Assembly: GCA_039989895.1 (NCBI GenBank)
Contig: JBDXGY010000003.1
Coordinates: 21,141 to 85,140 of the forward strand
Direction of reading: 5' to 3'
Length of the DNA: 64,000 nucleotides
DNA from: Hyphomicrobiales bacterium
Lineage (GTDB): Bacteria; Pseudomonadota; Alphaproteobacteria; Rhizobiales; JACESI01
Positions 2,912 through 63,778 of this stretch are shown here, piece by piece. The notes below the pieces were generated by a model. The model made no database searches and was not told the DNA's origin. It saw only the letters and a program-made list of their open reading frames with translations. Both the position numbers and the translations under genes were made by a program. Positions within the stretch are counted from its first letter, which is position 1; every line of letters starts with the position of its first letter.

Positions 2912-3027
2912 GAGGATCCAGCAATGACGTGACTTGTAAGACTGCATAAAACTCTCCAATGCTTTCGAACACAATATTTTAATTACAAAGACTCAACCTA
3001 AGAAGAAAGACAGAGGGTGCATTCACG

Positions 3028-3657: not shown

Positions 3658-3795
3658 GACCGGGGGTGTCTCGACAAGAGACTGAGAGGTTGTTGAGCTA
3701 AATTTATATTCATTACTATGAACATGAATAAAAGTGCGGCGAGCGTAACTGACCCTTAGAACCTGATCCAGTTCACACTGGCGTAGGGATGGTGA
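3654..3795 (+). promoter_or_regulatory. TPP (THI-box) riboswitch in the thiC leader
   Basis: GGGGUGUCUC-GACAA-GAGACUGAGA at 3662-3687 and ACCCUUAGAACCUGAUCCAGUUCACACUGGCGUAGGGA at 3752-3789 match the conserved THI-element cores. It lies directly upstream of thiC. About 60 nt are inserted between the CUGAGA and ACCC cores, including a 7-bp hairpin at 3707-3730. Confidence 0.8.
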
Positions 3796-5703
<1,908 letters not shown>

Positions 5704-45296: not shown

Positions 45297-45314
45297 CTCC
45301 ATAAGTCGGAGAAA

Positions 45315-45350
45315 ATGGTGGCGATTTTACTTCAGTAAAATCGCCACCAT
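45315..45350 (+). other. Perfect 15-bp stem-loop in the SBP-permease spacer (intra-operon attenuator/mRNA stabiliser candidate)
   Basis: ATGGTGGCGATTTTA-CTTCAG-TAAAATCGCCACCAT, 19 nt after the SBP gene stop. No U-tract follows. Confidence 0.5.
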
Positions 45351-45553
45351 ATAAAAATTAGCTTGGCAAATTTGATGTAGTTTTCTGAAATTTTAAATTT
45401 TGAGAACCATCCGCAAGATCAATCGATGGATGCTCCTTGATAGCAACTGCGCTCAAAAGATGTGAACTAAACTAGGGTCTTGGCAAAGTTAATTTTAGTC
45501 CAATACTGAGCACTCTAGTCACGAGGCGAATAACAAAAGACAACAGGATTGTA

Positions 45554-46441
45554 ATGACTGATATATCTGTGAAAACGACACCTAAAACGATGACTACGGC
45601 GCCTACCGGTTTTGCGATGTACATTTATCGTTTGAAGCAATCATTCAAAACGCCAAAGCCATACCTCACTGTCTTTGGTATATTTTTATGGATTTTCACC
45701 TACTGGTTGCTTTGTGAAGCACTGGGTATTTGGCGATTTGATAAAATCCCTGGACCGGTTGTGATTGCCAAAGAGTGGTTTTCAACAACACCTTTCCAAG
45801 GCATTTCTGTTTTCACCTCAGAATATTATGAGCACATTCTTGTCAGCTGCCGGCGCATAGCCATTGCATTTGCCATTGCAACAGGCGTTGGTGTGCCAAT
45901 TGGATTATTCATGGGGTGGTCCCGCAAAATTCGCGATTTCCTCTTTCCAATTCTAGAAATTCTTCGCCCAATCCCAATCTTAGCATGGGTACCTTTGGCC
46001 ATTTTGATGTTTGCAGGCTTCGAAGGTCCGGTCATTTTTCTTGCAACACTAGCATCCTTATTCGTCACAGTTTTGAATACAATGCTCGGTGTTGATTCAA
46101 TCGACGAAGAATATTTCCGCGCCGCAGGGTGTTTAGGCTCTAGCAAATGGCAAATTTTCACAAACATCGTCGTGCCTGGCGCTCTGCCGTATATCTTTAC
46201 CGGCCTTCAAATTTCAATTGGCGTTGCATGGTTCTCTCTTGTTGCCGCCGAGATGGTGTCTGGTGACTATGGACTAGGCTATCTAATCATCGACTCCTTC
46301 ATGAACAATGTAACTGTCCCGATGGTTATTGGCATGCTTACGCTGGGCTTTATCGGATGGTTTACAGCTATCATTGTTCGGATGGTCGGCAATAAATTGA
46401 TGGACTGGCATGTTCGCGAATTAGCTCAGCAGGGTCGCTAG
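45554..46441 (+). CDS. msmF: ABC transporter permease (NitT/TauT family), first of two
   Basis: 295 aa with about 6 TM helices. EAA-loop region in a BPD_transp_1-like pattern (DEEYFRAAGCLGSSKWQIFTNIVVPGALP). Confidence 0.6.
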   Translation: MTDISVKTTPKTMTTAPTGFAMYIYRLKQSFKTPKPYLTVFGIFLWIFTYWLLCEALGIWRFDKIPGPVVIAKEWFSTTPFQGISVFTSEYYEHILVSCRRIAIAFAIATGVGVPIGLFMGWSRKIRDFLFPILEILRPIPILAWVPLAILMFAGFEGPVIFLATLASLFVTVLNTMLGVDSIDEEYFRAAGCLGSSKWQIFTNIVVPGALPYIFTGLQISIGVAWFSLVAAEMVSGDYGLGYLIIDSFMNNVTVPMVIGMLTLGFIGWFTAIIVRMVGNKLMDWHVRELAQQGR

Positions 46442-46518
46442 TATTAAAGCGTGAATACAAAGGTTTTTATTTCTTATGAATTTTACCAACACAAATAAAT
46501 CAGGAAGGCCGTTCACCA

Positions 46519-47355
46519 ATGGATAAGCCTAGATCACGGGGTGCCTTGAGCATTCAAAATGTGACTAAAATTTATGACCCTGAAGGGGTCAATGTAATGG
46601 CGGTTGATGACTGTTCAATGGAAATCGCCGCAGGTGAAGTCTGCATGATCGTCGGACCTTCAGGCTGTGGCAAAACCACATTACTTAACGCCATTGCTGG
46701 CTTTCACTCTGTCACCCATGGCCAAATCCTTATGGACGGAGAATTGCTGTGTGGTGGTGTAAAGCCAAAGGCCGATCAAGGGGCTGATCGTATGGTGGTG
46801 TTTCAACATGGGGCTTTGTTCCCTTGGAAAACGCTTACTGAAAATGTCGCTTATGGCCCTATGGTCCAAGGCATTTTAAATAAATCACAAGCAATGGAAA
46901 AAGCGCGCGATATGCTATCGGAAGCAGGCCTTGGGAACGTTACGGAAAAATACCCTGGTGAAGTTTCTTCGGGCATGGCACGTCGGGCCGAGATTGTCCG
47001 CGCCTTGATCAATGATCCAAAAGTCTTGTTGCTGGACGAACCTTACCGGGCAATGGATGCTCTCACTAAGTCAATCATGCATGAGGCGCTTCTTGAGACC
47101 TATGACCGCACGAAAGTGACCATATTTTTCATCACGCATGATCTAGAAGAGGCAATTTTCCTCGGTGACAAAGTGCATGTGGTTACGACCCGTCCATGTC
47201 AGTTAAAGAAGACTGTTGAAGTTAATATTCCACGACCTCGGTCATTCGAGACTCAATCCTCTGAAGAATTCCGTCTGCTGATGGAAGAGGTTAATGAAGC
47301 TGTGCATGAAGAGGCCATTAAAGCCTTTCAGGCTGGCGAACGTGAGATGGCTTAG
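46519..47355 (+). CDS. msmG: ABC transporter ATP-binding protein (NitT/TauT family), first of two
   Basis: Walker A GPSGCGKTT, signature-like VSSGMARR, and Walker B LLLDEP. Confidence 0.6.
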   Translation: MDKPRSRGALSIQNVTKIYDPEGVNVMAVDDCSMEIAAGEVCMIVGPSGCGKTTLLNAIAGFHSVTHGQILMDGELLCGGVKPKADQGADRMVVFQHGALFPWKTLTENVAYGPMVQGILNKSQAMEKARDMLSEAGLGNVTEKYPGEVSSGMARRAEIVRALINDPKVLLLDEPYRAMDALTKSIMHEALLETYDRTKVTIFFITHDLEEAIFLGDKVHVVTTRPCQLKKTVEVNIPRPRSFETQSSEEFRLLMEEVNEAVHEEAIKAFQAGEREMA

Positions 47356-47372
47356 GGGCGAAAGTAAAAATA

Positions 47373-48239
47373 ATGACCGATGCAACAGTAGAAAACAAAC
47401 CAGTGAGAGCAGAACCGGTACGCCGTTCAAAGCTCCAAAAACTAATCCAAAGCACAACATTTTGGCGTGGTGTTATATCAATTGTGACGTTTTTGATCCT
47501 ATGGGAAATAGGATCTCGGTTTGGTGAATTAACCGGTACAGGATGGGAATTACCATTTGTTGGAAAGATTCCACCTCCCTCCGCTGTTTTTGTCAGCTTC
47601 CTCGAAGTAATCCCTAACATTGGATATTGGAACAGCTGGCTCCAAAGCACCAAGCGGGTTATGTCAGGGTTTATTGCTGCCATGGTCCTTGGAATACCTT
47701 TTGGCCTCGCGCTTGCAGTTAATAAGTATTTTCGAGATATCTTTTTTCCACCCTTTGAGGTGCTGCGCCCTATCCCGCCTTTGGCTTGGGTTCCTGCGTC
47801 GCTTATCTTTTGGCCAACCAATGAAATGTCGATTGCATTTGTGACCTTCTTGGGTGCCTTCTTCACGATTGTGATTAATGTGATCGGTGGAGCACGTTCA
47901 ATTGATGTTCGCTATTTGCGAGCGGCCCAATCAATGGGTGCCTCACAATGGGATCTATTCAGTAAGATTATACTACCTGGAACATTGCCTTCCATCTTTA
48001 TTGGTGCCGCAGTTGGCATGGGTATTACTTGGGAAGTGGTTCTTGCCGCTGAAATGATTTCCGGCGGTGGCACACAGGGCGGTGGTGGCCTTGGGTTCTT
48101 TATCTGGAATTCTTACATCGGGGGCTCTTTGGAGCAGGTCGTTGTTGGCATGATTTCAATTGGTATAGCTGGTTACTTATGTTCTAGCGCCATCCGCGTA
48201 CTGGGTACTTTATGCATGCCTTGGCGCCGGCTATTTTAA
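47373..48239 (+). CDS. msmH: ABC transporter permease (NitT/TauT family), second of two
   Basis: 288 aa and paralogous to 45554-46441 (DVRYLRAAQSMGASQWDLFSKIILPGTLP). A glycine-rich loop GGGTQGGGGLG is unique to this copy. Confidence 0.6.
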   Translation: MTDATVENKPVRAEPVRRSKLQKLIQSTTFWRGVISIVTFLILWEIGSRFGELTGTGWELPFVGKIPPPSAVFVSFLEVIPNIGYWNSWLQSTKRVMSGFIAAMVLGIPFGLALAVNKYFRDIFFPPFEVLRPIPPLAWVPASLIFWPTNEMSIAFVTFLGAFFTIVINVIGGARSIDVRYLRAAQSMGASQWDLFSKIILPGTLPSIFIGAAVGMGITWEVVLAAEMISGGGTQGGGGLGFFIWNSYIGGSLEQVVVGMISIGIAGYLCSSAIRVLGTLCMPWRRLF

Positions 48240-48266
48240 GTTTAGATTTTTGGAGATAACGAAATT

Positions 48267-49139
48267 ATGCACGATCTATATGGAAAAATCTGCCGCGAAC
48301 CTGCCGAACGCAGGAACAGTGGTGACATAGAAAAGCAAAGTAAGATCGAAATTAAAAATCTCTCAAAATCCTATGGTGATGAATGGGAGTCAGAGCAGGT
48401 TTTAGAAAATCTGGACCTCATGGTGAACCCGGGTGAGATGACAGTTATTGTCGGCCCTTCAGGGTGCGGCAAATCTACTCTCGTCAATCTTATCGCGGGT
48501 TTTGAAAGCCCAGACGAAGGTAGCATCCTGCTGGATGAAAAGCAGATAACAGGTCCAGCGAAAGATCGGATGGTCGTGTTTCAAGAAACAGCACTCATAC
48601 CTTGGCAGACCACCTATCAAAACATCGTCTTTGGTCCAAAACTACGTGGCGATATCAAAGGGGCAGAACTTAAGAAGAGAACTGAAGACCTTTTAATCAA
48701 AGTTGGACTTGGTGAGTTTATGCATAAATACCCGTTGCAACTTTCAGGCGGGATGCAACGGCGGGCTGAGTTGGCGCGTGCTCTTATCAATGAGCCACGC
48801 GTGATGATTATGGATGAGCCGTTTCGTGGCCTTGATGCTATGTCACGCTCACTCATGCAGGAATTCTTCTTGCAACTGTTTGATGAAAACAAAAGAACCA
48901 ACTTGTTTGTTACCTCTGAAATTGATGAGGCAATTTTCCTAGCTGATAATTTGATTATACTTTCAAATAAACCCACGACGGTACGTAAAATTATTCGGGT
49001 TAATCTACCCCGTCCGCGTAACTATAAAATGCTTAGCTCACCTGAAGCTTACGAAATCAAACGTGAAGCAATGGAAATTCTCCATGAAGAAGCAATGAAG
49101 AACTTCAAGGGTACGGGCTCTGATGAGGCCGCTGGATAA
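48267..49139 (+). CDS. ABC transporter ATP-binding protein (NitT/TauT family), second of two
   Basis: Walker A GPSGCGKST, signature LSGGMQRR, and Walker B MIMDEP. Confidence 0.7.
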   Translation: MHDLYGKICREPAERRNSGDIEKQSKIEIKNLSKSYGDEWESEQVLENLDLMVNPGEMTVIVGPSGCGKSTLVNLIAGFESPDEGSILLDEKQITGPAKDRMVVFQETALIPWQTTYQNIVFGPKLRGDIKGAELKKRTEDLLIKVGLGEFMHKYPLQLSGGMQRRAELARALINEPRVMIMDEPFRGLDAMSRSLMQEFFLQLFDENKRTNLFVTSEIDEAIFLADNLIILSNKPTTVRKIIRVNLPRPRNYKMLSSPEAYEIKREAMEILHEEAMKNFKGTGSDEAAG

Positions 49140-49460: not shown

Positions 49461-49554
49461 TAAGACAAATAATATTAAGTGTTATTTGATCACACTGTTT
49501 GCTATTATTGAGTTTACTAGGTTCGAGAGTTTAAGTGTAACTGATGGCAAAAAA

Positions 49555-50277
49555 ATGCTGATTGAGGTAAGCGGACTGCATAAATCCTTTAAAGGACAAA
49601 TGGCGGTCAACAACGCAAATTTCTCCATTGAAAACCCTACTATTGTTGGCTTGCTTGGCTCTAATGGTGCTGGGAAATCCACCACCATGCGAATGATGGC
49701 TGGCATACTAAAACCTGACAGCGGTGTGGTGCGTATTGTCGGTCATGACATCATCAACGATCGCCTATCCGCACAAAGTAATCTTGGCTATCTTCCCGAA
49801 GCCGCTAGCGGGTTTTCAAATGTCACCGCGCTTGAATTTCTCAAGTTTGCAGCGAGTGCCCAAGCATTAGAAAGACAAGACCGCAAACACGCCGTAGAAG
49901 CTGTCATTGATCGTCTTGATTTGTCATCGATCACAGGAACGACACTTGGCACACTCTCTAAAGGCTGGCGGCAACGTGTCTGGTTGGCGCAGGCGCTCAT
50001 CCATGATCCCAGCGTCTTGATACTTGATGAGCCAACCGATGGCCTTGATCCCAATCAAAAACTCGTGCTGCGAAAATTGCTACAGGAAGTCGCAAAGACA
50101 ACCGCCATTATCATGTCCACCCATATTCTTGAGGAAGCGGAAAACCTTTGCGAGCAAGTGATTGTGATGAATGAAGGAAGCATAGTTGCTAACCTGCCCA
50201 CACAAGATTTGCTGGACAGCGAAGGGCGTTTAGCAACAGCTGTTCTAGATTTAACAACCTCACAAGTGGGGCACTGA
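49555..50277 (+). CDS. ABC-2-type transporter ATP-binding protein (GldA/CcmA-like)
   Basis: MLIEVSGLHKSF start, Walker A GSNGAGKST, signature LSKGWRQR, and Walker B LILDEPTDGLD. The start is taken at ATG 49555; the track's TTG start is at 49486. Confidence 0.75.
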   Translation: MLIEVSGLHKSFKGQMAVNNANFSIENPTIVGLLGSNGAGKSTTMRMMAGILKPDSGVVRIVGHDIINDRLSAQSNLGYLPEAASGFSNVTALEFLKFAASAQALERQDRKHAVEAVIDRLDLSSITGTTLGTLSKGWRQRVWLAQALIHDPSVLILDEPTDGLDPNQKLVLRKLLQEVAKTTAIIMSTHILEEAENLCEQVIVMNEGSIVANLPTQDLLDSEGRLATAVLDLTTSQVGH

Positions 50278-50284
50278 TATTTCC

Positions 50285-52897
50285 ATGGAGGATAAAAAGA
50301 CCAACACACCAATGATGCGCGGCCCACTTGTTTCAAACTGGTTTGAGCAAGTTTTTGCAATGACCAAGCAGGAATTGCAGCAACTTGTCTACACACCCAT
50401 TACATTGATTTTTCAATCCTGGTTTTTACTAGCTTTGAGTATATTGATATTCGCTGTTGCCGATTTCTTATCGACCGATCTCGCCACCTTTGATCTGTTA
50501 TGGACATTCTTACCTTGGGTTTCGATTGTCTTAGTTCCAGTGCTTGCCATGCGCGCTTTTGCGCAAAATATTGGTGACCGAGGATTTGAATTGCTTATGT
50601 CATTTCCAGTTTCAGATTCGGCGATTGTTGTCGGCAAATGGCTTGGCGGAGCTATTGTCTTAATTATAACGCTGGCGATGACTGCGCCCTTTATTGCGAC
50701 TGTTGCCTATCTTGGGTCTCCTGATTGGGGCATAGCTCTTTCTGGATACATCGGCGCAGCTCTTCTCTTAATCAGCTTTTATGCGCTCGCTCTTTTTGCA
50801 GCCTCTCTCACCCGTGATCAGGTGGTCGCTTATATATTATCCCTTAGTGGTTTAACGGTGCTGCTGATCTTGGGTTGGGACGTGGCCGCACGTACACTCG
50901 GCGGAACATTGCCAGATTGGGTAATAACAGCGCTCGTTCAGGCAAGCCCGAAGTTCTGGCTTGGTGAGATGTCGCAAGGCCAAATTCATTTGGCGGCCAT
51001 CATTTATTTTATCGGGCTAATTAGCTTGTGCCTTGTATTGACGATTAAGGTTCTCAAAGGACGCCGCATTGACAGCCCTGGGGCGCTCCATCCAGCATTC
51101 GGTATCTTAGGACATACTGGTTTATGCTTTTGTGTAATCGTTTTGCTGGGTGCGTCTGTGTCACATGTACCCTATGCGCTTGATATGACGAAGGACAAGA
51201 TATTCACTTTGCATCCTGAAACTATTCAAATAGCAAAGCAAACTCCAGATAATACAAAGATCGACTTTTATTATAGCAGCGATGAAAGCGCTATTCCGGC
51301 CAGCATCCGGCACCATGCCAAGAAGGTGAAAAATCTACTTGATGAGGTTGCGGGCCGTTCTAACGGTAAGATTACCATCGTTGAAAATTATATCGCACCG
51401 GATTCCTCTTCTGAAGAGCAGGCGCTTATATCTGGTGTGCGATCCATTCCCATGACTTCTGGCGATCAGTTCATGCTTGGTGCGGTTTTTCGGCAAGGAG
51501 ATCGTGAAAGCGCTATTTCATATTTTGACCAGCAGCGCGCTCAACTTTTAGAATATGATCTTGCTTTGATGATGAATTCGCTCAATCGTAAAAAGACGCC
51601 CCGCATCGGCATTCTTACCCCTTTATTAGCATCTAGCAACATAGACAAACCACGCGAAGGCTTTGCTATTTTTGAAGAAATTAAACGGCAATATGATGTG
51701 ACAATAATCCCGCATTTTCATGATCAACTACCAGAAAACTTAGATGTATTGCTTGTCGTTGATGCGCCAATTTTGAAAAAAAGTATGCTCTTATCGATTG
51801 ACCAGCACGTCATGAATAACCGTGGGTTGATCGCAATTCTTGACCCTTACCCTCGCTTCAACAGTGCGAATGCCCAGACCTCACCGCAGCCCTCTGAAGA
51901 AATAAACGATATATCAGATATTCTCGCAGCCTACGGAATAATCTATCAAGGGCCAATTGTAATTGGCGACAGCGAGCTAGGCGCACCCGTTGCTGGGGCA
52001 GATGGCAGACAATTAATCTATCCTTATTGGTTGCGCCCAAATCGACCCTCTATGTCAACGGCACACGGGACGACAGCGAGTTTGAATGAACTTTTATTCG
52101 CTGAAGCAGGATCTTTCAAAATTTCTAAAACCAGAGCTGAATTTGATCGATTGATTGTAACCGGCGAAAGCTCTGGCACCTTGCCAAGAGATAATTTCAA
52201 GCAAAAAGCACCGGGTTTTCTTGCAGCCCAATTCACGCAAGATAAAAGTATGAGTCATACAATTGCAGTGGCGATGCGTGGAGAAGCAACCAGTGCTTAT
52301 GGCGCTGATAATAAAGTCTCAGGTGAAGTTTCCTTCAAGAAGAAAACACAATCCGCAAATGTGTTTGCGATCGCCGATGCCGACTGGTTATTCGATCCAA
52401 TGGCTTTTCAAACTGTAAATAACGGCGGTCAAGAAGTGCGGCGACCGTTAAATGATAATGTTGCCTTTATACTGAATATGATCGAGTTTTCTTCAGGCGA
52501 CCCGAGATTGGTAGGCATTCGCTCACGTGGTGGGGCTCGGCACTCCTTCACCACAGTAGCCGACATTCTACAGGCGGGGCGAGATCGTTATGTAGCTCAA
52601 GAAGCTGATTACGCCAACCGGATCGCTAAATTGGAAGCAAGCATTTCAGAAGTTATGAGCCTGACAGGAGCAACCGACATCAGGCAATTACCAGATAATC
52701 TGCAATCTCAGATCAAGGAATTGAGAAAGAATATCCTGCCGTTTCGTCAAAACCTCAGAGAGATTAGAGAAAGAATGCGCGAAGATGTTGAGAAGTTAGA
52801 GTTTAAACTTAACTTCTTAAACTTCATTGCTGGACCGGTTTTAGCCGTCCTATTTGCAGCATTGGTGTGGGCGCGGCGGCGTAAAAAAACCCTCTAG
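50285..52897 (+). CDS. Fused ABC-2 permease (GldF-like, ~260 aa) + GldG-like auxiliary domain (~600 aa)
   Basis: The N-terminal six-TM region is ABC-2-like. Then come a TM segment, a [14 protein letters not shown]...IDFYYS...IAPD region typical of GldG N-domains, and a C-terminal coiled coil plus TM anchor ([22 protein letters not shown]). The start lies 8 nt after the ATPase gene. Confidence 0.65.
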
Positions 52898-54570
52898 AAG
52901 AGCCCTTCTACAAAGCCATTATCATCAAGCATGATTGCTTCAGCTGATGGGACACGCGGCAAGCCCGGCATGGTCATGATCTCGCCGCAGATTGCAACAA
53001 TGAACCCTGCACCGGCTGAAAGTCTAACTTCGCGAATTGGCAATGAATGGCCCGTTGGCGCTCCACGCAAGTTTGGATCTGTTGAGAAAGAGTATTGAGT
53101 CTTCGCCATACAGACTGGCAGGTTGCCATAACCAGCCTCTTCCCACTGATGCAATTGATTACGGATCTTCTTGTCAGCTAGAACCTCATCGGCACGGTAA
53201 ATACGCTTTGCAATGGTCTCCATTTTTTTAAACAAAGATATGTCATCAGGATAAAGAGGTGCGAATTGCGCGCTGCCTTTATCGATCATCTTTACAACCT
53301 TGTTTGCAAGATCTTCGGTGCCTTTTGAACCATGCGCCCAATGCTTACAAAGAACAGCTTCTGCGCCTTGTGTTGAAACATAGGCTTTGACAGCTTCAAC
53401 TTCTGCGTCCGTATCCGCGATAAAATGGTTGATCGCAACAATAACGGGAACGCCGAACTGTTTGATGTTTTCAATATGGCGGCCGAGGTTTGCACAGCCC
53501 TTCTTCACCGCATCAACATTCTCATTGTTCAAATCTCCTTTAGCAACACCCCCGTTCATCTTCATAGCGCGGACCGTTGCAACGAGGACAACTGCGTCTG
53601 GCGCAATGCCGGCTTTGCGACACTTGATGTTGAGGAATTTCTCTGCGCCCAAATCAGCACCAAAGCCTGCTTCTGTGACAACATAATCAGCAATTTTAAG
53701 CGCTGTTTTTGTTGCAACAACAGAGTTACAGCCATGAGCGATGTTAGCGAAAGGGCCGCCATGTACGAAGGCAGGATTGTTTTCTAATGTTTGTACAAGG
53801 TTCGGCTGCATCGCTTGCTGAAGAAGCACTGTCATCGCACCATCAGCCTTGATGTCACGACAAAAAACAGGCGTTTTGTCACGGCGATAAGCGACAATGA
53901 TATTGCCAAGCCGTTCTTGTAGATCTGCAAGGTCATTTGAAAGGCACAAAATGGCCATCACTTCTGATGCAACTGTGATGTCAAAACCAGCTTCACGAGG
54001 AAAGCCGTTGGAGACACCGCCTAGTGACGCTGTAATCTCACGTAGCGCGCGATCATTCATGTCCATGACACGACGCCAAACAACGCGACGCGTATCGATT
54101 TCAAGGCTATTGCCCCAATAAATATGATTGTCGATCATTGCTGATAGAAGATTATGAGCAGAAGTAATCGCGTGGAAATCACCTGTAAAATGCAGGTTCA
54201 TTTCTTCCATTGGCACAACTTGCGCATAGCCGCCACCTGCAGCGCCGCCCTTCATACCAAAACAAGGACCAAGTGACGCTTCACGTATACACACCGCCGT
54301 CTTTTTGCCGATGGCATTAAGACCATCACCCAGACCAACCGTTGTGGTCGTCTTACCTTCACCCGCAGGTGTTGGATTAATTGCCGTCACAAGGATAAGC
54401 TTGCCGTCCTTATTACCCTGAACTGACTTGATAAAGTCTTCCGAGACTTTCGCTTTGTCATGTCCAAATGGTAAAAGGTCATCACTACCAATTCCGAGTT
54501 TCGCACCTATTTCTTGGATTGGTTTTTTATTTGCTTCACGGGCAATCTGTATATCTGACTTAACGGTCAT
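52894..54570 (-). CDS. fhs: Formate--tetrahydrofolate ligase
   Basis: 558 aa. [16 protein letters not shown]-loop, full-length collinear with FTHFS. SD GAGGAAG. Confidence 0.96.
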
Positions 54571-54732: not shown

Positions 54733-55632
54733 TTATCCTTTAGCTTTTCCAATCTCTTCGAGTTTTTTCTCCCATTTCATAGCTTTTGCGAAGGTTTCAA
54801 GTTCTTCATCAGGCATATGAATTGTGTTTTCAGGACCAGGGTAATTCCGATTAACCACATCATCCATGTAACGAGTAATCACGTCTTCCATAATAGGAAT
54901 AAGGTCGGTGTATATGCGTGAATGTTTTGGAACATGCTCTTCCCAAAGATGGAAGAGATCTGATGAAATAATATGTACACCATCTGCGCAGTTACCTGCA
55001 CCAAGGCTGATAACGGGCACTGGCAAAATCTCTGCCAAATATTCAGCAACTTCAGATGTTGTCACTTCGCAAAGAATAGAGAAACAACCAGCATCATAAA
55101 ACGCTTTTGCATCATCTACCATTGCCTGTGCACTTTGGGCTGTTTTACCCTGAGCAACAAAACCACCAAGCTGAGGCATACGCATTGGTGTAATACCAAC
55201 GTGGCCTTGTACCGGAATACCCGCATTGACGATTGCTTCAATGTTTGGCGCATGATGGCGATTGCCTTCACACTTCATCACTTCAGCATTTGCTTGGTGT
55301 ACGAATTTACCAGCATTGTCGATTGCTTGCTCTTTAGAAACATGGAAGCTCCAGTAAGGCATATCAACCATACGCATACCGTATTGAGAACCACGATCAA
55401 TGGCTTGGGCCATCATCATGACTTCTTCAAAACTAACTGACACCGTGCTTTGGTGTCCAAACAAAATCATGCCGCCTGTATCTGACACACATAATATGTC
55501 CATGCCTAAACGATCCGATACAACCGCTGTTCTATAATCATATGCAGCAAGCTGCGTGATAGGCTCACCTTTTTTCATTTTCGCTTGTAGCGTCTTATAA
55601 GTAACTTTTTTTCTCTTAGCAGCCTGTGCCAT
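54733..55632 (-). CDS. 3-methyl-2-oxobutanoate hydroxymethyltransferase (PanB) family protein with a C-terminal extension
   Basis: AYDY ... VSDTGGM ... VDMPY ... MKCEGN ... GHVGITPM ... ILCEV align with the PanB Mg/catalytic motifs (VGDSLGM, ADLPF, VKIEGG, GHIGLTPQ, LVLECV). Strong SD GAGGGGAGG before ATG 55632. No panC is adjacent. Confidence 0.75.
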   Translation of the reverse strand: MAQAAKRKKVTYKTLQAKMKKGEPITQLAAYDYRTAVVSDRLGMDILCVSDTGGMILFGHQSTVSVSFEEVMMMAQAIDRGSQYGMRMVDMPYWSFHVSKEQAIDNAGKFVHQANAEVMKCEGNRHHAPNIEAIVNAGIPVQGHVGITPMRMPQLGGFVAQGKTAQSAQAMVDDAKAFYDAGCFSILCEVTTSEVAEYLAEILPVPVISLGAGNCADGVHIISSDLFHLWEEHVPKHSRIYTDLIPIMEDVITRYMDDVVNRNYPGPENTIHMPDEELETFAKAMKWEKKLEEIGKAKG

Positions 55633-55684
55633 ATTGGGCCTCCCCTCATAATAAATTATTGACTTTAGCCTCACCGAGACTATT

Positions 55685-56075: not shown

Positions 56076-57011
56076 ATGTTTTTGAGGCAATTCAAATATT
56101 TAATTGCAGTCGATAAGGAGGGGCACTTTGGCCGTGCTGCTGCGCATTGCAATGTGACGCAGCCAAGTTTGTCGAGCGGCATAAAACAATTAGAACTAGA
56201 ACTCGGTGTAACGCTCTTTAAAAGAGGGCGTGGACAAAGATTATATGGCACGACCCCAGAGGGCGAAGTTGTTGCTAAATGGGGCCGTCAAATTATCGCA
56301 CATTGCGATGCTATGTATGATGAAATTGCATCCATGCAAAATAACTTGAATGGCACGCTAAGAATTGGCGCTATGCCATCCATGTCACCCATCTTGCCGG
56401 TGATTTTACAAAGAATTAGAAATCTTCATCCAGACATCAAAATTGATGTAGAATTTATTGGTAATGACGCGATGAAAGTCGGCCTCGGTAATTTCACGCT
56501 CGACAGTGCAATTACCTATGTCGATAATGCTGATCTGGGTCGATGTGACGTATTGCCAATCTATACAGAGACCTTCAGTCTGCTTGTTCCGGATTCTTTC
56601 AAGTTTGAAAACCGCGAGGAAATCACCTGGAAAGAAGCCTCGGAACTGCCTTTAGCCATGTTGAGTCCCAATATGCACGAACGCCGATTTGTGGAAGAGG
56701 CATTTGCTAAATCTGGTTGTGATGTTGTGCCAAAAATTGAATCGCCTTCAATTTTGCATCTTATGTTTCAGGTGCAATTTACCGAACTTTGCACCGTTAT
56801 TCCTTCGCACTTTATCCGCATGCCGGGGCTACATGAAGGTACGAAGGCTTTACGCTTGATAGAACCTGAAGTTACTCAAGAAGTCGGCTTATTCTGGATT
56901 GAAGGTAAAACGGCTATGCCTATGACAAATATCATGGTTGATATTGCAACTAACCTCAACCAGTCAGGCGATCTGCGTAGTCTTCTCAGTGGCCCCAAAC
57001 AACGATCATAA
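56076..57011 (+). CDS. LysR-family transcriptional regulator
   Basis: N-terminal wHTH domain LRQFKYLIAVDKEGHFGRAAAHCNVTQPSLSSGIKQLELELGVTLFKR followed by a LysR substrate-binding domain. SD GGGGAGG. Confidence 0.85.
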   Translation: MFLRQFKYLIAVDKEGHFGRAAAHCNVTQPSLSSGIKQLELELGVTLFKRGRGQRLYGTTPEGEVVAKWGRQIIAHCDAMYDEIASMQNNLNGTLRIGAMPSMSPILPVILQRIRNLHPDIKIDVEFIGNDAMKVGLGNFTLDSAITYVDNADLGRCDVLPIYTETFSLLVPDSFKFENREEITWKEASELPLAMLSPNMHERRFVEEAFAKSGCDVVPKIESPSILHLMFQVQFTELCTVIPSHFIRMPGLHEGTKALRLIEPEVTQEVGLFWIEGKTAMPMTNIMVDIATNLNQSGDLRSLLSGPKQRS

Positions 57012-57016
57012 AGCCG

Positions 57017-57844
57017 CTAATTAGCCAAGCGCTTGCGACAGTTAAGAATGCTTTTGCTCAAAAATAAAACCACATCATCATCACTCATATTGTCTGACGC
57101 AATGCGCTCAACAGGCAAAAGACTTGAAGCTTCAAAATCACCTGCCTCAGCCTCATCCTTCGTTGCTGTAAAAAAGAAGGGGGATGGGCGCAGTCCATCG
57201 CCAGCTGACAAGCCCATACGAATGGCTGGTGAGCCAAATCCTGGCTGTAAGTCGAGCTCTATGCCCAGATGGAATAGCTGCGGCCAGCAAATAACCGGTA
57301 TATCTGTTGAGGCAAGGAACCCATCTTCATTATTTTTGAGACTATCCGCAACAGCTGCGCATACTTCGGCTGAGTCACAAAAACAATCGTTCAATGCCGT
57401 GAGCTCATTAGAATATTGCTCGACTTCGTGTTCCTCACTATCACCCATCATCAGTTCTGTGCCGACATAAGGAAGAGTTTTTGAAAATTTCTCACGATCC
57501 ACACCACGATGCAGCAACTCTATCAAAAACCATGCCTCAACATGAGCCGGTGTTCGCTCTTGAAACGACAGTGTGTGGGGAACCGGAATATCATTTTCAC
57601 AAAACTGCAGCTCAAGTGTCTCAAGCCGCAGCTCGAGGGAATATTTAGACAAAAATTGTTTTGTTCTGATTGAACGCGCATTTGAATTCCACAGCAGTTC
57701 AATGTGACTATTTTTATCATCCGCCTCTATGTAGCTGTTGGCTATTCGCGCCATCCAATGCAAAGCATTTTGAGCTTGCCTGCGAGACGCTTTCATTTCA
57801 GTTGACTTAACCGTTAAAATTGATTGCCACTGCTGATTTTTCAT
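57017..57844 (-). CDS. Hypothetical acidic protein (275 aa), co-oriented downstream of msmD
   Basis: Longest ORF in this stretch, with GAGGA 9 nt upstream of the ATG and 71 nt after the msmD stop. No signal peptide or TM segment, and no family recognised. Confidence 0.5.
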   Translation of the reverse strand: MKNQQWQSILTVKSTEMKASRRQAQNALHWMARIANSYIEADDKNSHIELLWNSNARSIRTKQFLSKYSLELRLETLELQFCENDIPVPHTLSFQERTPAHVEAWFLIELLHRGVDREKFSKTLPYVGTELMMGDSEEHEVEQYSNELTALNDCFCDSAEVCAAVADSLKNNEDGFLASTDIPVICWPQLFHLGIELDLQPGFGSPAIRMGLSAGDGLRPSPFFFTATKDEAEAGDFEASSLLPVERIASDNMSDDDVVLFLSKSILNCRKRLAN

Positions 57845-57915: not shown

Positions 57916-58959
57916 TTAGCTAAATTTATCATAACGAATTTGCTGTGCTGAAAGACCCGCATTCACAATTAAAACACGGGTTGCCGCATCAACCATCGGG
58001 GCTGGGCCTGCAAGATAGCCGATCACATTGCTATTATCACCATCAACGCAACCTGCAGCAACGTCAGTGACAAACCCGCCCGCCAGCGTAATATCCGGAA
58101 AATCTGGATGAACTGACGCACTCGGCGCTTCATCAGATAGAACAAGGGTAACTTCAAGATTACCCTTTGCTTCTTTCATCATCGATGAAAGCTCGCTCAT
58201 ATAAAATGCATCTATTAAGGTTCTAACACCAAAAAACAGCTTTGCTTTTCGCTTTAAAAGATGCCCCGATCGCGTTGCATGATCTAAAATAGACATAATA
58301 CCTGCAATGCCAGAACCGCCGACGATGCATATAAGGTCTTTATCTTCCTCAGGATGGAATGTTGCCCTCCCCAGAGGACCAAAGAGTTTTAACTGGCTGC
58401 CTTTAATGTCATTTTCAAAAATCCAATCGGAAAATCCACCATTTGGATTGCGCTTAACAACAAAACTTATGCGATCTGTTGAAGAATCATAATTCACCAT
58501 AGAGTAAGCACGGCCACCAGTCAGATTTGGCGCTTCCACAACCATAAATTGGCCGGCTTGAAACGACAGATTCTCGCGCATAGCTATCTCATAATGGATA
58601 ACATCTGACGTCAGTTTTTTGACTACGTCCACTGTTCCGTGGTGCAATTTAGGTAATGTGTTTTTGTTTTGGTCATCTGGAGTATCGGAAGGCACGCGCA
58701 GCACGCAATCGCCATTTGCGCGCGTCTGACACATAAGTATATCGCCTTTATCAGCTTTGTAACGCGCCATGCCTGGTGCGTCAGTCCATGCCATATCGAT
58801 ATTTCCATCCATAACGCGGGCCCTACAAGAACCACAGGTGCCTGTCGCGCAATCATAGGGAAGTTTAAGCCCCGCCTTTAACCCAGCGAATAAAATAGGC
58901 TCATCTTCAGCCGTCTCAAATTTATACTCACCTGATTTGGATTGTAGCGTGATGGTCAT
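57916..58959 (-). CDS. msmD: Oxygenase reductase: N-terminal plant-type [2Fe-2S] ferredoxin + FNR-like FAD/NAD(P) module; candidate MSA monooxygenase reductase
   Basis: CATGTCGSC (C-X4-C-X2-C) with a later Cys, RAYS-type flavin motif (GRAYSMVN), and GGSGIAG NAD-binding loop. It is the last gene of the Rieske oxygenase operon. Confidence 0.72.
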   Translation of the reverse strand: MTITLQSKSGEYKFETAEDEPILFAGLKAGLKLPYDCATGTCGSCRARVMDGNIDMAWTDAPGMARYKADKGDILMCQTRANGDCVLRVPSDTPDDQNKNTLPKLHHGTVDVVKKLTSDVIHYEIAMRENLSFQAGQFMVVEAPNLTGGRAYSMVNYDSSTDRISFVVKRNPNGGFSDWIFENDIKGSQLKLFGPLGRATFHPEEDKDLICIVGGSGIAGIMSILDHATRSGHLLKRKAKLFFGVRTLIDAFYMSELSSMMKEAKGNLEVTLVLSDEAPSASVHPDFPDITLAGGFVTDVAAGCVDGDNSNVIGYLAGPAPMVDAATRVLIVNAGLSAQQIRYDKFS

Positions 58960-59000: not shown

Positions 59001-59378
59001 TCAGGAGAAAAAGTCATCGTCGCCTAGCTCATCTTCTTCTTCGAAGTCATAGAGCAATTGTTCCGTGACAAATGCCATAACATGACCATCTTCCACCTTA
59101 GCATCATAGGTTTTGAGAGGCTTTTCTGCTTCGCCCTTTAATTCCAAGGTTTCCAGATCCCACGCCCAAAGGTGCTTTGTGCACGTCAAAACGCAACCAG
59201 CGATGACGCCAGATTCTTCCAAAGGTTCTTCCATATGAGGACACACAGGCGGTAAAACGGTGTAACCATTCTTGTGGCGAGCCACAAGAACAGGAATTCC
59301 TCCCGCAGCGCCTGCCCAAAACTTTTTGACGCCGCCTTCAGTAACTTCGTCTGTGGTGCAAATCTTTGTCCAGCTCAT
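59001..59378 (-). CDS. msmC: Rieske-type [2Fe-2S] ferredoxin; candidate MSA monooxygenase ferredoxin
   Basis: 125 aa with CPH-X17-CTKH Rieske ligands and a very acidic C-terminus (DFEEEDELGDDDFFS). Confidence 0.72.
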   Translation of the reverse strand: MSWTKICTTDEVTEGGVKKFWAGAAGGIPVLVARHKNGYTVLPPVCPHMEEPLEESGVIAGCVLTCTKHLWAWDLETLELKGEAEKPLKTYDAKVEDGHVMAFVTEQLLYDFEEEDELGDDDFFS

Positions 59379-59501: not shown

Positions 59502-59999
59502 TTAAATAGGCCAATGAGACCCTTTGTCCAAGCGACGGTTATCTAATTTAACTTCACGCTTGAGAAACTTCACTTGGTCATTTTCAATGACAAAATCATC
59601 AATATATTTGCCAACCAAAAACAGGCGGCTTTCACCTGAATCAATATGAGAATTATTACCATCAAGCATGTTTTGATAAACAACAAACGAACTCACTGCA
59701 CTGGCAGATTTACCATCCTCAGCCACATCAACTGTGTAAACGGATGTATGACGGCGCAAGGGAGAATGATCTGTATTGTGCTTAGGGAGCAGATCAATGA
59801 TGGATGTCATTTCCTTCAAGTCGCCCTCCATATAGATCATGTCTTTATTAATCTCTGGGCTGAAAGAGGTTATTATATAGTAGTAATCTTCACTACATAA
59901 TGCGAGCCAGTCGTGCCATTCCTGACCATCCAGTGCAATGGTTGCTCGATAAATCGTATCCCGAACTGAGTTAGAAATATCATAATTATTGTTTGGCAT
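59502..59999 (-). CDS. msmB: Ring-hydroxylating-oxygenase small (beta) subunit, SnoaL/NTF2-like; candidate MsmB
   Basis: 165 aa. The size, position and pattern (IYRATIALDGQEWHDWLALCSEDYYY ... RHTSVYTV ... GKYIDDFV) are typical of RHO beta subunits. Confidence 0.7.
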   Translation of the reverse strand: MPNNNYDISNSVRDTIYRATIALDGQEWHDWLALCSEDYYYIITSFSPEINKDMIYMEGDLKEMTSIIDLLPKHNTDHSPLRRHTSVYTVDVAEDGKSASAVSSFVVYQNMLDGNNSHIDSGESRLFLVGKYIDDFVIENDQVKFLKREVKLDNRRLDKGSHWPI

Positions 60000-60235: not shown

Positions 60236-61498
60236 TTATTCTGCTGCTTCCGCTTCGGCTGCGGCCGCTGGTGGAGAATATGGTTGATCCGGCGCACTTG
60301 GCAGACGGTCCATCCAACGACCCCATTCATCATAATAATGGCGCATACCATTTTCATCATGGATGGTTTGATTTTCCTGACGACCATGGAGAATACGGCG
60401 ATTATCCGTCTTCTCGCGCATTGTTGTCCCTTGACCGGTAACACCAATCAGGTCTTCATGCAGATTGCGACCGAATGGGCCCCAAATCGAGTTGTGGTGC
60501 TTAATTCTGGTAGCACGGTCCTCTGCGGAATCACTTTTTAAACCAAGCCCACGGAATTCAATCATCACTTTATTTGGACCTAATGGCGTAACCACATCGG
60601 TACGCAAGGCTGATCCGCGCAAGTTGAAGTTGAAGCCAGGGAACAGATCAATCATATACCACTGGTTCGGTGGCAAATGCGGGAATGACAATTCTGCGCG
60701 ACTTTCGAAGCCTTCGTAATTCTCGTAATTAACTTCAAATGAGCCGACAACGACATGGCCGTGGTCAAAGGCTTCATTTTTACGAGCAAAATAGGAATCA
60801 TTAAAACCGGTTACCCTATTATGGTAGTGCATGAAGTCGTGATAAAACTCACTGTTAGTATCATGCCATAACTTATAGTTCGTATCGATTATCGCTTTAT
60901 GATAATGGAAAACCTCAAGAGGCTCTTCATCAAGAGACTTTTGCAAGCACTCAAAAGGTTTGCCTGCCCAGTCTTCAAGAGAAACTGATGGATTATCGCT
61001 GAGGTTAACCCAGACAAAACCACCGTATTTTACTTCACAGCGAAGTCTGCGCAGCCCTACATCGGCTTTACACAAACGATCCTGATAGCCTTCTTCTTCT
61101 CTGGAGACATAGACACAATTGCCCTTCATGTCGAACTGCCAAGCATGGAACATACAAGTCATACGCTTAGGGTTGCCTGATGGCTGACCTTCCATAAAAC
61201 TTCCAGATGGACGCCGCTCAATAAGCATACCACGGTGAGGGCAAACATTGAGGAATGCTCGCACTACCTTGTCGGGACCACGTGTTATTATGATGGGCTC
61301 ATTAGCAATACTTGTGGTGCGGAAGTCATAAGGCTCAGGAAGCTCAGATTCATGGCAGACCGGCACCCATACCTGTTTGAAAATTTTCGAATTTTCTTCT
61401 TCAGCAATAGTCTCATCAGAATAAACGCGACTATCGATCCACTCGCCTTTTTCAAGCTTTGGGTCCGCTGTCCATTGTTTGTTATTGCGTGCGGGCAT
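60236..61498 (-). CDS. msmA: Rieske oxygenase large (alpha) subunit with CXH-X26-CXXH centre; candidate methanesulfonate monooxygenase hydroxylase MsmA
   Basis: 420 aa. CPH-RGMLIERRPSGSFMEGQPSGNPKRMT-CMFH gives a 26-residue spacer by my count. Catalytic-domain His cluster NSEFYHDFMHYH. SD GGAGA 6 nt upstream. Followed by beta-subunit, Rieske ferredoxin and reductase genes. Confidence 0.78.
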   Translation of the reverse strand: MPARNNKQWTADPKLEKGEWIDSRVYSDETIAEEENSKIFKQVWVPVCHESELPEPYDFRTTSIANEPIIITRGPDKVVRAFLNVCPHRGMLIERRPSGSFMEGQPSGNPKRMTCMFHAWQFDMKGNCVYVSREEEGYQDRLCKADVGLRRLRCEVKYGGFVWVNLSDNPSVSLEDWAGKPFECLQKSLDEEPLEVFHYHKAIIDTNYKLWHDTNSEFYHDFMHYHNRVTGFNDSYFARKNEAFDHGHVVVGSFEVNYENYEGFESRAELSFPHLPPNQWYMIDLFPGFNFNLRGSALRTDVVTPLGPNKVMIEFRGLGLKSDSAEDRATRIKHHNSIWGPFGRNLHEDLIGVTGQGTTMREKTDNRRILHGRQENQTIHDENGMRHYYDEWGRWMDRLPSAPDQPYSPPAAAAEAEAAE

Positions 61499-61826
61499 AA
61501 GTCATCTCCTAAATGTTTCAGCTATCCATCTATTTAAACTGCAAGATCGCTCCTGAACTCACAGACACCAATAGACAGCTGCCTCCAAATGGTAACCTAA
61601 GATACCAAGATCATAATATATCTCTGCACCTAAAGATTTTCATAGTATCTAACTTTAACATAGGTAAGTCTTCTACTGCTACAGATTATACAATCAAAAC
61701 CATCTATTAGATTATCGAAGCTATAAATCATTATTATATGAGAATATCTGCAAAAAATATCTACTTAAAACAATAGCTTAAAAAACAACCTCAAAATAGC
61801 TTTGCGGCAAAAAGAACATGCAACCT

Positions 61827-62912
61827 CTACTTAACGTTCACTTCAACGCGCGCAACTCCATTATTACCCACGCCGTAAAAAGTAACGACTTGCTCAAGTG
61901 GTTGTATATTACCTTTTGAATCCGTTGCTCGAGAAACCAGCGTATGTTTTCCAGGGGTGGCCTGCCATTCATAATTCCAGCCGCGCCATGCAAATTCACC
62001 AATGGGTTCTTCCAGCGATGCGTCATTCCAAGTTTTACCATCATCTGCACTTACTTCGACGCGCGATATCTGATTTTTCCCAGCCCATGCACGGCCCGTT
62101 AAGGTGACAGGGCCAGGCTCTAAACGACGCTCAAGTGATGGAAATGTAGAAACACCTGGAGGCGCCATCAATGCGCGCACTTTAATCGTCTCAATCGCAG
62201 TTCCCGCATCTCCTGCACCACTGGTTTCGCGATAAAATATCATCTGCATGCCATTGAAGGCCTCAGTGACAACTTCTATTTGATTAAGCCATTTTACGCT
62301 TGTCATTCCATACCAACCTGGAACAAGGAGGCGAAGCGGATAGCCATGTTGCGGCTCAAGGGGGGCGCCATTCATTTCATAAGCCAGAATTACTTCATCG
62401 TTCATCGCATCAGCAATGGTAAGAGAGCGTTGATAATATTGGTCTTCTCCTGATTGTATTCCTCTATCTGCACCCGTAAACAGCACCTCTAAAGCGCCAT
62501 CAGCAAGACTAGCTTCTTCCAAAATACCTTTAAGAGGCGTGCCAGTCCATAAAGCTGTACTCACAGCGTCATGCGTCCAAGGCTGGTTTACAGGGCGCGG
62601 TTTCATGAAAGCGCGGCCATTTCCGGCGCATTCCAAAGTCACTGGCATTTTGACGGCTGGTCGTTTCTTGATGTCATCAAGGTCCAGTTTAATCGACTTA
62701 TTAACATGCCCACCAATGTCCAATTGCCATGTGCTGGAGTCTACAACAGGAATATCCCAGTGATTAAGGAGATAGTGCATGCCTGTAGGTGTAATCGGCA
62801 TACGAAGTCCCTCTGCCGGTATTCCGCGATTTCTGAACGCAAGCTGAACTTCTTGAAACTCAAATGTGTTCTCACTTGTATGGCCGCCCTCACTTACAAG
62901 AACATCAGACAT
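61827..62912 (-). CDS. Sulfite-oxidase-family (SUOX-fold) molybdopterin oxidoreductase, no signal peptide
   Basis: TLECAGNGR contains the Mo-ligand Cys (compare CAGNRR in sulfite oxidases). GYPLRLLVPGWYGMTSVKW lies in the Oxidored_molyb core, followed by a C-terminal Ig-like dimerisation domain. The ATG at 62912 is preferred (AAGGGGA 5 nt upstream) over the one at 62927. No RR/Tat motif and no hydrophobic leader. Confidence 0.78.
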   Translation of the reverse strand: MSDVLVSEGGHTSENTFEFQEVQLAFRNRGIPAEGLRMPITPTGMHYLLNHWDIPVVDSSTWQLDIGGHVNKSIKLDLDDIKKRPAVKMPVTLECAGNGRAFMKPRPVNQPWTHDAVSTALWTGTPLKGILEEASLADGALEVLFTGADRGIQSGEDQYYQRSLTIADAMNDEVILAYEMNGAPLEPQHGYPLRLLVPGWYGMTSVKWLNQIEVVTEAFNGMQMIFYRETSGAGDAGTAIETIKVRALMAPPGVSTFPSLERRLEPGPVTLTGRAWAGKNQISRVEVSADDGKTWNDASLEEPIGEFAWRGWNYEWQATPGKHTLVSRATDSKGNIQPLEQVVTFYGVGNNGVARVEVNVK

Positions 62913-62973
62913 TTTCTTCCCCTTCATGATTTTACTGGATTGTTTTTAACTTTGGTTTGGAGCAAAGACCCGA

Positions 62974-63169: not shown

Positions 63170-63778
63170 CTAGTTGTTGTTGAATTCAACCTGCGTCACA
63201 AACCGTGGCCGACGCACGGCGTTATTTTCAAGAGTAAAAATTTTCAAATTAGCTGTGCCAAATAAAGGGGCATAGTCTCCAACCACAGAAACAAGAATTA
63301 CTGTTTCACCTTCGGGTAGGGCCGGCAGAGAAAAATTTTGCAAATCTTTATCGCGGAGTTCCTCTTGTCCATCACTTGTTTTGCTCCACAAGACCGACAA
63401 AGCTGGATCACCATCACTGTCAAATTCATTTTCAATGCTTGTGATGCTTACGCGATAATTTGTGGCGTTGTCATAGCGACCCAAGAGAGATCTTGCGGTT
63501 TCAAAAAATAGATCAATTGATCCGTTATCCACCGACGTCTGCCTGCTCACCAAATCTACAACTATGGTCGCTGAATCATTGTAAGCTTGTCGCGCTCGCA
63601 CACCATCGATAACCACCAACGATCCAAGAAACAAAAGTATAAATATTGGTGCCACTAAGGCTAATTCTACTGCGGCTACGCCTTTTACATTTTTTGCAAA
63701 CCTAGCGCTGGCAGAAACCAAAACCCAACTTGTACACTTGGCACATGTTTGAATTGAATTGAACATTGAGAATTTCAT
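63170..63778 (-). CDS. TadE/TadG-family Flp-pilus pseudopilin-like protein
   Basis: GVAAVELALVAPIFILLFLGSL is the TadE-like N-terminal hydrophobic segment. The exact start among several Met codons is uncertain. Confidence 0.6.
   Translation of the reverse strand: MKFSMFNSIQTCAKCTSWVLVSASARFAKNVKGVAAVELALVAPIFILLFLGSLVVIDGVRARQAYNDSATIVVDLVSRQTSVDNGSIDLFFETARSLLGRYDNATNYRVSITSIENEFDSDGDPALSVLWSKTSDGQEELRDKDLQNFSLPALPEGETVILVSVVGDYAPLFGTANLKIFTLENNAVRRPRFVTQVEFNNN

Follow-up and report, generated by a model that had tools for sequence, protein, structure and literature searches.

The 64,000-nucleotide stretch of DNA analysed here (the window, from contig JBDXGY010000003.1 of a Hyphomicrobiales bacterium) carries an msm gene cluster for the use of methanesulfonate (MSA) and, upstream of msmA, one gene of the sulfite oxidase (SUOX) family, the product of which has the SUOX fold and the Mo-ligand cysteine and is without leader, heme or partner. 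Oxidation of dimethylsulfide in the atmosphere yields MSA as a major product, and breakdown of MSA by bacteria frees toxic sulfite in the cell; in known msm clusters the sulfite is exported and then oxidized in the periplasm. The window cluster has no such export or periplasmic module, and the SUOX gene is linked to it. We propose that the SUOX protein serves the Msm pathway by disposing of sulfite in the cytoplasm, possibly with O2 as electron acceptor, an explanation to which, taken as a whole, we give an even chance; sulfite would be its substrate, O2 would be its acceptor, and the gene would be co-regulated with msm. A sulfite-detoxifying role of this kind had been put forward in a preliminary description of the window, in which the predicted cytoplasmic location and the msm linkage have stood, while the assumed substrate has become less secure, the sulfite-binding arginine being replaced by leucine. 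The gene and its principal features are as follows.

61827..62912, minus strand: SUOX-family molybdoenzyme gene, 361 aa from the likely start M6; named 'sulfite oxidase' by NCBI, MEP6355568.1 (from a Hyphomicrobiales metagenome-assembled genome, MAG)
62250..62762, minus strand: Oxidored_molyb (molybdopterin-binding) domain, PF00174, Pfam E=1.1e-58, residues 56-226 (366-aa numbering)
61833..62129, minus strand: Mo-co_dimer (Ig-like dimerization) domain, PF03404, Pfam E=2.3e-13, residues 267-365
62628..62630, minus strand: codon of the Mo-ligand Cys, C100 (366-aa numbering) or C95 (361-aa numbering), equivalent to SorA C104 and chicken C185
62766..62768, minus strand: codon of Leu54 (Leu49 in the 361-aa numbering), in the column of the substrate-binding Arg (SorA R55, SorT R78, chicken R138, human R160)

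The gene is the only one of its family in the window (n=1, 61827..62912). Its longest open reading frame (ORF), the one marked in the preliminary description, is 61827..62927 on the minus strand (366 aa), and the coding region itself is most likely 61827-62912: M6 at 62912, which is preceded by AAGGGGAAG, is the likelier start, a 361-aa product is called by NCBI, and the start calls of the homologues agree. A TAA stop lies in frame two codons 5' of the first ATG; therefore no N-terminal extension or revision of the start can add a leader, and the cryptic Tat leader that a different start codon might have uncovered was rejected. The N-terminus, MSDVLVSEGGHTSENTFEFQEVQLAFRNRG, has neither an RR-x-F-L motif nor a hydrophobic stretch, and the peak 12-residue Kyte-Doolittle mean is 0.53, compared with ~2.0 in the Tat-leadered SUOX genes of other msm loci. 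Short leaderless N-termini are shared by nearly all of the 120 closest homologues, and lengths across the clade run from 361 to 370 aa. Pfam detected no heme, cytochrome b5 or cytochrome c domain in the protein, and no ORF of at least 80 aa with a CxxCH motif was found between positions 40 and 64 kb in the window. These results confirm what had been noticed at first reading, namely the lack of a Tat or Sec leader, of a heme domain and of an adjacent cytochrome c gene. Leaderless, with no possible N-terminal extension and no Tat-bearing partner gene, the SUOX protein is predicted to be cytoplasmic.

The translation contains TLECAGNGR, with the Mo-ligand cysteine, and GYPLRLLVPGWYGMTSVKW; together with the C-terminal dimerization domain seen by Pfam, these markers bear out the fold assigned in the preliminary description, and the window protein is a two-domain SUOX-fold molybdoenzyme of the sulfite-oxidase type. 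An AlphaFold model (predicted local distance difference test, pLDDT, 83; predicted template-modelling score, pTM, 0.82) is of low confidence in residues 1-50, which include the leucine and the RN(H/R)G motif discussed below. Foldseek aligned the model with SorA at a template-modelling (TM) score of 0.76 and with chicken sulfite oxidase (SO) at up to 0.79, and with YedY at only 0.39, the Mo domain alone being superposed. Among sequences in the PDB, SorA was the best match (E=1e-50), followed by SorT, chicken and plant SO, Thermus SOE, SoxC and nitrate reductase, and YedY was remote (E=9e-7). The NCBIfam scores fell below the equivalog cut-offs throughout: 222 bits against 420 for SoxC (TIGR04555), 217 against 600 for SorA (NF052245), 183 against 570 for SorT (NF052247) and 54 against 207 for MsrP. 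Membership of the YedY/MsrP family was rejected on the basis of the 54 bits, compared with 217-222 for SorA and SoxC, the remote PDB match, the TM score, the presence of the dimerization domain and the absence of a leader. Placement outside YedY/MsrP is thus upheld; placement in a sulfite clade is not, and, judged from the sequence, the protein belongs to no characterized subfamily, being neither SorA, SorT, SoxC nor MsrP.

The msm cluster spans ~44.2 to 62.9 kb of the window and comprises, in addition to the SUOX gene, the following features.

60236..61498, minus strand: msmA, MSA monooxygenase hydroxylase large subunit, with Rieske and Ring_hydroxyl_A domains and CxH-X26-CxxH
59502..59999, minus strand: msmB, hydroxylase small subunit
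59001..59378, minus strand: msmC, Rieske-type ferredoxin
57916..58959, minus strand: msmD, Fer2-FAD-NAD reductase
57017..57844, minus strand: conserved msm-associated ORF, 275 aa, with no Pfam or NCBIfam match
44193-49139, plus strand: SsuA-like binding protein and msmFGH-like ATP-binding cassette (ABC) importer
49486-52897, plus strand: GldA/F/G-like ABC-2 system
52894-54570, minus strand: formate-tetrahydrofolate ligase
54733-55674, minus strand: panB
56076-57011, plus strand: LysR
61499..61826, minus strand: SUOX-msmA spacer, 328 nt, AT-rich

The msmABCD genes are genuine: msmA encodes Rieske and Ring_hydroxyl_A domains and has the CxH-X26-CxxH Rieske spacer that serves as an MsmA-specific criterion (PMC4433239), and members of the 90% cluster to which the window MsmA belongs are named 'methanesulfonate monooxygenase large subunit' (JGI). 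Between the SUOX stop at 61827 and the msmA start at 61498 the gap is exactly 328 nt on the same strand, as first described. The minus strand of this spacer showed no intrinsic terminator, and no shared promoter or operator motif stood above chance around the SUOX gene. A central block of the spacer (~61636-61746, ~110 nt) is almost invariant in comparison with two related loci (L012 and L013), while the flanking spacer diverges; the block looks like the control region of msmA itself and is a candidate msmA promoter or LysR operator. TauE, a GcvT-like gene, SoxD, a SoxC/SorA-type gene and cytochrome c are all absent from the window cluster. The msm cluster of Filomicrobium sp. Y carries a TauE sulfite exporter and a SoxC/SoxD pair (PMC4433239), and the window cluster is otherwise syntenic with it or similar in content, minus TauE, SoxCD and cytochrome c.

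How sulfite is handled at other msm loci was examined in 80 msmA-centred metagenome loci, the ORFs of which were clustered; at least 18 kb had been captured for 17 of them. Within these 17, TauE was present in 13 (confirmed with Pfam), a Tat-leadered, Arg-retaining SUOX-family gene of the SoxC/SorA type in nine, and a cytochrome c gene adjacent to the SUOX-family gene in eight. All 18 SUOX-family genes seen at msm loci encode a Tat leader and keep the arginine (15 of the SoxC type, FERHH, and three of the SorA type, FVRYH). Because TauE, cytochrome c and a second SUOX gene are all missing from the window, we conclude that the leaderless enzyme fills the functional slot of the usual sulfite-disposal module in this cluster.

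The arrangement is not confined to the window. The SUOX-328 nt-msmA order recurs in L012 and L013, where SUOX is 92% and MsmA 99% identical to those of the window, and at least four more MAG assemblies, numbered consecutively in their accessions, have SUOX-328 nt-msmABCD. A second order, panB-msmA-msmB-msmC-msmD-SUOX, occurs on one strand with a 94-nt gap and an intact msmD in L014, a divergent cluster the MsmA of which is 68% and the SUOX 79% identical to the window proteins. The existence of two gene orders, in clusters that have no module of TauE, Tat-leadered SoxC/SorA and cytochrome c, supports the conclusion that the SUOX-msm link exceeds one chance adjacency. In L012 a resolvase gene (988-1542) lies directly upstream of SUOX-msmA-msmB (2013-5417), which argues that SUOX is inside a mobile msm unit, and the identity of 99% for MsmA but 92% for SUOX in this locus suggests recombination within that unit.

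Several neighbouring features are recorded here in their own right. GC content is 0.42-0.46 across the msm region (42000-64000) and 0.47-0.52 in the first 36 kb (1-36000), a contrast that would fit horizontal acquisition of the region as an island, with the SUOX gene inside it. Homologues of the 275-aa ORF, which lies 71 nt downstream of msmD, occur in 29 of the 80 msmA loci; the ORF is a conserved component of msm clusters, still without a name, and possibly a fifth operon gene. At 49486-52897 on the plus strand, within the cluster, are genes for a GldA-like ATPase and a fused GldF/GldG-like ABC-2 protein (870 aa), and this pair of 'ABC transporter' genes is also listed for the msm region of Filomicrobium Y. 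As a rule ABC-2 systems act in export, and one could speculate that this one exports sulfate or sulfite. Directly upstream of the SUOX gene is a TadE-like pilus assembly gene (63170-63778, minus strand); L017, which carries a SUOX orthologue at 76% identity, has TadE/Tad genes within 3-6 kb in another order, and no msm.

The active-site pocket was compared with those of characterized enzymes through alignment columns fixed by SorA point mutants in the PDB, R55M (2ca3) corresponding to Leu54 of the query and Y236F (2c9x) to a conserved tyrosine. The Mo-ligand cysteine of TLECAGNGR is invariant in the aligned homologues (121 sequences). The column of the substrate arginine, in the motif ITPTGMHYLLxH(F/W)DIP, is L, I or V in 121 of 121 sequences, that is, the 120 best homologues and the query. 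R100, Y227, W112 and H51 (361-aa numbering) correspond to chicken R190, Y322, W204 and H140 and are invariant or nearly so in the clade; the SorA counterparts of R100, Y227 and H51 are R109, Y236 and H57. The Y322 equivalence was taken from HMMER alignments, a MAFFT run having misplaced that column. Sulfite is held by a hydrogen-bond network of Arg138, Arg190, Arg450, Trp204 and Tyr322, and chicken C185, R190, W204, H140 and Y322 are listed among the residues that bind sulfite or adjoin the Mo site (PMC5856855). Because leucine has taken the place of the sulfite-binding arginine in every clade member examined, sulfite is a presumed substrate. Loss of the arginine co-varies with changes near the N-terminus (361-aa numbering), where R27-N28-(H/R)29-G30 replaces x-N-A-E and H46 replaces F. 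The new basic residues R27, H/R29 and H46 might compensate for the lost charge; the AlphaFold model is unreliable in that segment.

An exhaustive search of 1.84 billion representatives gave 1108 matches below 1e-30. In a rough neighbor-joining tree, built without support values from the full-length representatives, SorA and the msm-linked SoxC/SorA types, the 40 Arg-less representatives came out as a single monophyletic clade; it lies within, or is sister to, a larger group ('group B'; FYVRNHF, NAETP) whose members are mostly leaderless and have retained the arginine. Identity remains at 57-62% to homologues with the source labels Chloroflexota and Dehalococcoidia, and we report the clade as leaderless 'sulfite oxidases' that number in the thousands and come from SAR202/Chloroflexota, Actinomycetota and marine Proteobacteria. 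No conserved redox partner lay next to the clade genes in 12 contexts (L001, L015, L017, L100-L105, D. deserti, Streptomyces and Embleya); the Flavodoxin_2, AhpC, Suf and DoxX genes seen as neighbours were not recurrent, and no conserved neighbour was present at the ~58-59% identical members P0031 and P0118, which are on metagenome contigs of 1.9-4 Mb. A Fer4 gene beside L017/L018 was considered as part of SoeAB and rejected, as it belongs to an aldehyde:ferredoxin oxidoreductase. The Arg-less clade is a general enzyme, usually monocistronic, and a single marine lineage has recruited it to msm clusters.

A few members of the clade have Tat leaders (P0176, P0179 and WP_012695115 of Deinococcus deserti). 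The D. deserti protein, of 447 aa, is encoded on plasmid 3 immediately downstream of a gene for a DoxX-family membrane protein (L110, 5039-7134), and DoxX is a possible quinone-linked acceptor for exported variants of the clade. On pRadio1 of Deinococcus radiophilus (L111, 279-3262), a leaderless, Arg-retaining 'sulfite oxidase' of the sister group adjoins a moaD-containing gene; it probably represents the orthologue type to which the heme-less D. radiodurans enzyme belongs. That enzyme, the sulfite oxidase reported by D'Errico et al. in 2006, is presumably a member of group B.

The mechanism that we envisage is that a soluble, heme-less, single-subunit Mo-molybdopterin enzyme of the SUOX family was recruited into the msm cluster of a marine Hyphomicrobiales lineage. 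MSA monooxygenase is cytoplasmic and releases sulfite (PMC4433239); MsmABCD would split CH3SO3- in the cytoplasm to formaldehyde and sulfite, and the SUOX enzyme would move an oxo group from Mo(VI) to sulfite, yielding sulfate. This step would stand in for export by TauE followed by periplasmic oxidation by SoxC/SorA and cytochrome c. The Mo(IV) would then be re-oxidized by a cytoplasmic acceptor, the most economical guess being O2, with superoxide and H2O2 as products. O2 would be the simplest acceptor because the protein has no heme and no partner gene, and the Mo domains of heme-less SO enzymes do react with O2, as in plant SO and heme-truncated animal SO (PMC10574614). In a variant of this scheme that we think improbable, the SUOX enzyme would pass both electrons from sulfite on to the MsmC ferredoxin as it oxidizes it, and if so, MSA cleavage would be independent of NADH.

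Of the known systems, SorA of SorAB (Starkeya novella, PDB 2blf) is the nearest in sequence (34% identity) and shares the two-domain architecture, the Mo-ligand cysteine and the equivalents of R109, H57 and Y236; SorA, however, is exported by Tat and is tightly bound to the cytochrome c SorB, neither of which holds for the window protein, and its R55, essential for substrate affinity, is leucine here. The SoxC/SoxD-like and SorA-like enzymes that occur with TauE in msm clusters such as that of Filomicrobium sp. Y (PMC4433239) occupy the same niche and belong to the same superfamily, but they have Tat leaders, keep the arginine (FERHH/FVRYH) and are encoded beside cytochrome c and usually TauE, all of which the window enzyme lacks. 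Its nearest mechanistic analogue is plant SO (Arabidopsis, PDB 1ogp), a heme-less enzyme made up of just the Mo and dimerization domains that works without a cytochrome partner and passes its electrons to O2 (PMC10574614); the plant enzyme differs in being peroxisomal and eukaryotic and in keeping all three pocket arginines, and it scores 133 bits against the window protein. Leaderless, single-subunit, cytoplasmic enzymes of the SO family are a recognized, uncharacterized group (PMC7759655), which includes group B; the group is defined descriptively, and the window protein fits the description as leaderless, single-subunit and heme-less, like the group's stand-alone genes for proteins of 345-370 aa. 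Group B itself keeps the arginine and NAETP, in contrast to the L and (R)N(H/R)G of the window clade. Oxidation of sulfite on the cytoplasmic side, the job proposed for the window enzyme, is also carried out by SoeABC, a membrane-bound, cytoplasm-facing member of the dimethyl sulfoxide (DMSO) reductase family, and by AprAB/Sat (PMC12345210, PMC6018796), but these come from unrelated families, their chemistry depends on quinone or AMP, and the window does not encode them. MsrP/YedY resembles the window protein in its SUOX-fold Mo domain and in having no R138-type arginine; it differs in the absence of a dimerization domain, in Tat export, in its YedZ partner and in being a sulfoxide reductase.

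Several findings weigh against a role of the SUOX enzyme in sulfite disposal for the Msm pathway. The substrate-Arg column holds L, I, V or F in 40/40 clade representatives and R in 81/81 non-clade ones, the equivalent of chicken R450 is also absent from the clade, and activity of the human R160Q variant is below 5% (PMC10574614). A literature search turned up no clade member that has been characterized or assayed. The 80 other msmA loci contained no member of the leaderless Arg-less clade, and the orthologues that are 64-81% identical stand alone in unrelated surroundings, the neighbours being PfkB and PanE in a Granulosicoccaceae MAG, LysR and PhyH, an AOR-ferredoxin pair, or unrelated genes; those at 76-81% identity have no msm nearby. 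Co-occurrence with msm is thus seen in two gene orders and limited to a narrow tip lineage, with most members of the clade elsewhere. The spacer has its own conserved block, and SUOX and msmA may therefore be transcribed separately. Coverage of the genome is 64 kb only, and TauE, SoxCD or SoeABC could lie elsewhere. Much of this would also be expected of a housekeeping cytoplasmic SUOX enzyme with a general role, such as basal detoxification of sulfite or relief of redox stress, that is only fortuitously a neighbour of msm, a reading that we consider possible but rather unlikely. It is favoured by the size and conservation of the clade, whose genes are almost always monocistronic and without a conserved neighbour, by the close orthologues that have no msm nearby, by the separately conserved block in the spacer and by the absence of the clade from the other msmA loci. 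Two gene orders, however, hold SUOX at 100-330 nt from msm even where MsmA is only 68% identical, the resolvase of L012 places SUOX within a mobile msm unit, and the msm clusters that contain a clade member are without the common TauE/SoxCD module.

The pocket raises the question of whether sulfite is the substrate at all. The Arg-to-Leu clade could act on a less anionic compound, either methanesulfinate, oxidized to methanesulfonate that would feed MsmABCD, or an S- or N-oxo compound, in which case the name 'sulfite oxidase' would be wrong; we regard this as unlikely. The remodelling of the pocket is concerted and invariant in a monophyletic clade (R138 to L, loss of R450, NAE to (R)N(H/R)G, and F to H at 46), one of the three anion-binding arginines of vertebrate SO is left, R-SO2- would fit a pocket in which leucine adjoins the retained Arg, Trp and Tyr, and a site beside msmA also fits an upstream step of the pathway. 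On the other hand, the clade-specific R27, H/R29 and H46 could restore the charge, the Tat-exported members, beside DoxX in D. deserti, resemble periplasmic detoxification, no genes for dimethyl sulfone (DMSO2) or for the generation of sulfinate were seen in the window, and, with no TauE/SoxCD module, something in the cluster must handle sulfite. In its broadest form, which we think improbable, the entire clade would consist of sulfinate oxidases or dehydrogenases (R-SO2- to R-SO3-), here converting methanesulfinate to methanesulfonate for MsmABCD. This would be a new reaction for the SUOX fold and would assign a molybdoenzyme to sulfinate oxidation, for which the flavoenzyme MsuC is the sole enzyme named in the literature cited. 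It is very improbable that the SUOX protein is in fact exported, through a missed start or by hitch-hiking on a Tat partner, and is an ordinary periplasmic sulfite dehydrogenase. The few Tat-leadered clade members would speak for this, but the in-frame TAA, the same short N-terminus in nearly all of the closest homologues and the absence of an adjacent partner or cytochrome gene argue against it.

Cytoplasmic sulfite disposal by the SUOX enzyme, the explanation that we prefer, is not wholly without precedent, since the leaderless SUOX group had been recognized (PMC7759655) and the homologous 'sulfite oxidase' of SAR202 had already been proposed to use or detoxify sulfite derived from organosulfonates (PMC5395668); it does not amount to a categorically new system. 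What is new is the specific substitution of a leaderless SUOX enzyme for the export/periplasmic module of an msm cluster, the second, operon-like msmABCD-SUOX architecture, and a clade that uniformly lacks the canonical substrate arginine. A cytoplasmic SUOX enzyme swapped into the cluster would mean a different handling of sulfite, with sulfate formed inside the cell and with either no respiratory energy gained or another acceptor used. Members of the clade are routinely labelled 'sulfite oxidase' in metagenome studies, for example of SAR202, though they are without the arginine that is regarded as essential for binding sulfite. Linkage to msm would supply a defined physiological source of sulfite and a tractable genetic context, and may thereby offer an entry to the function of the clade and to its electron acceptor.

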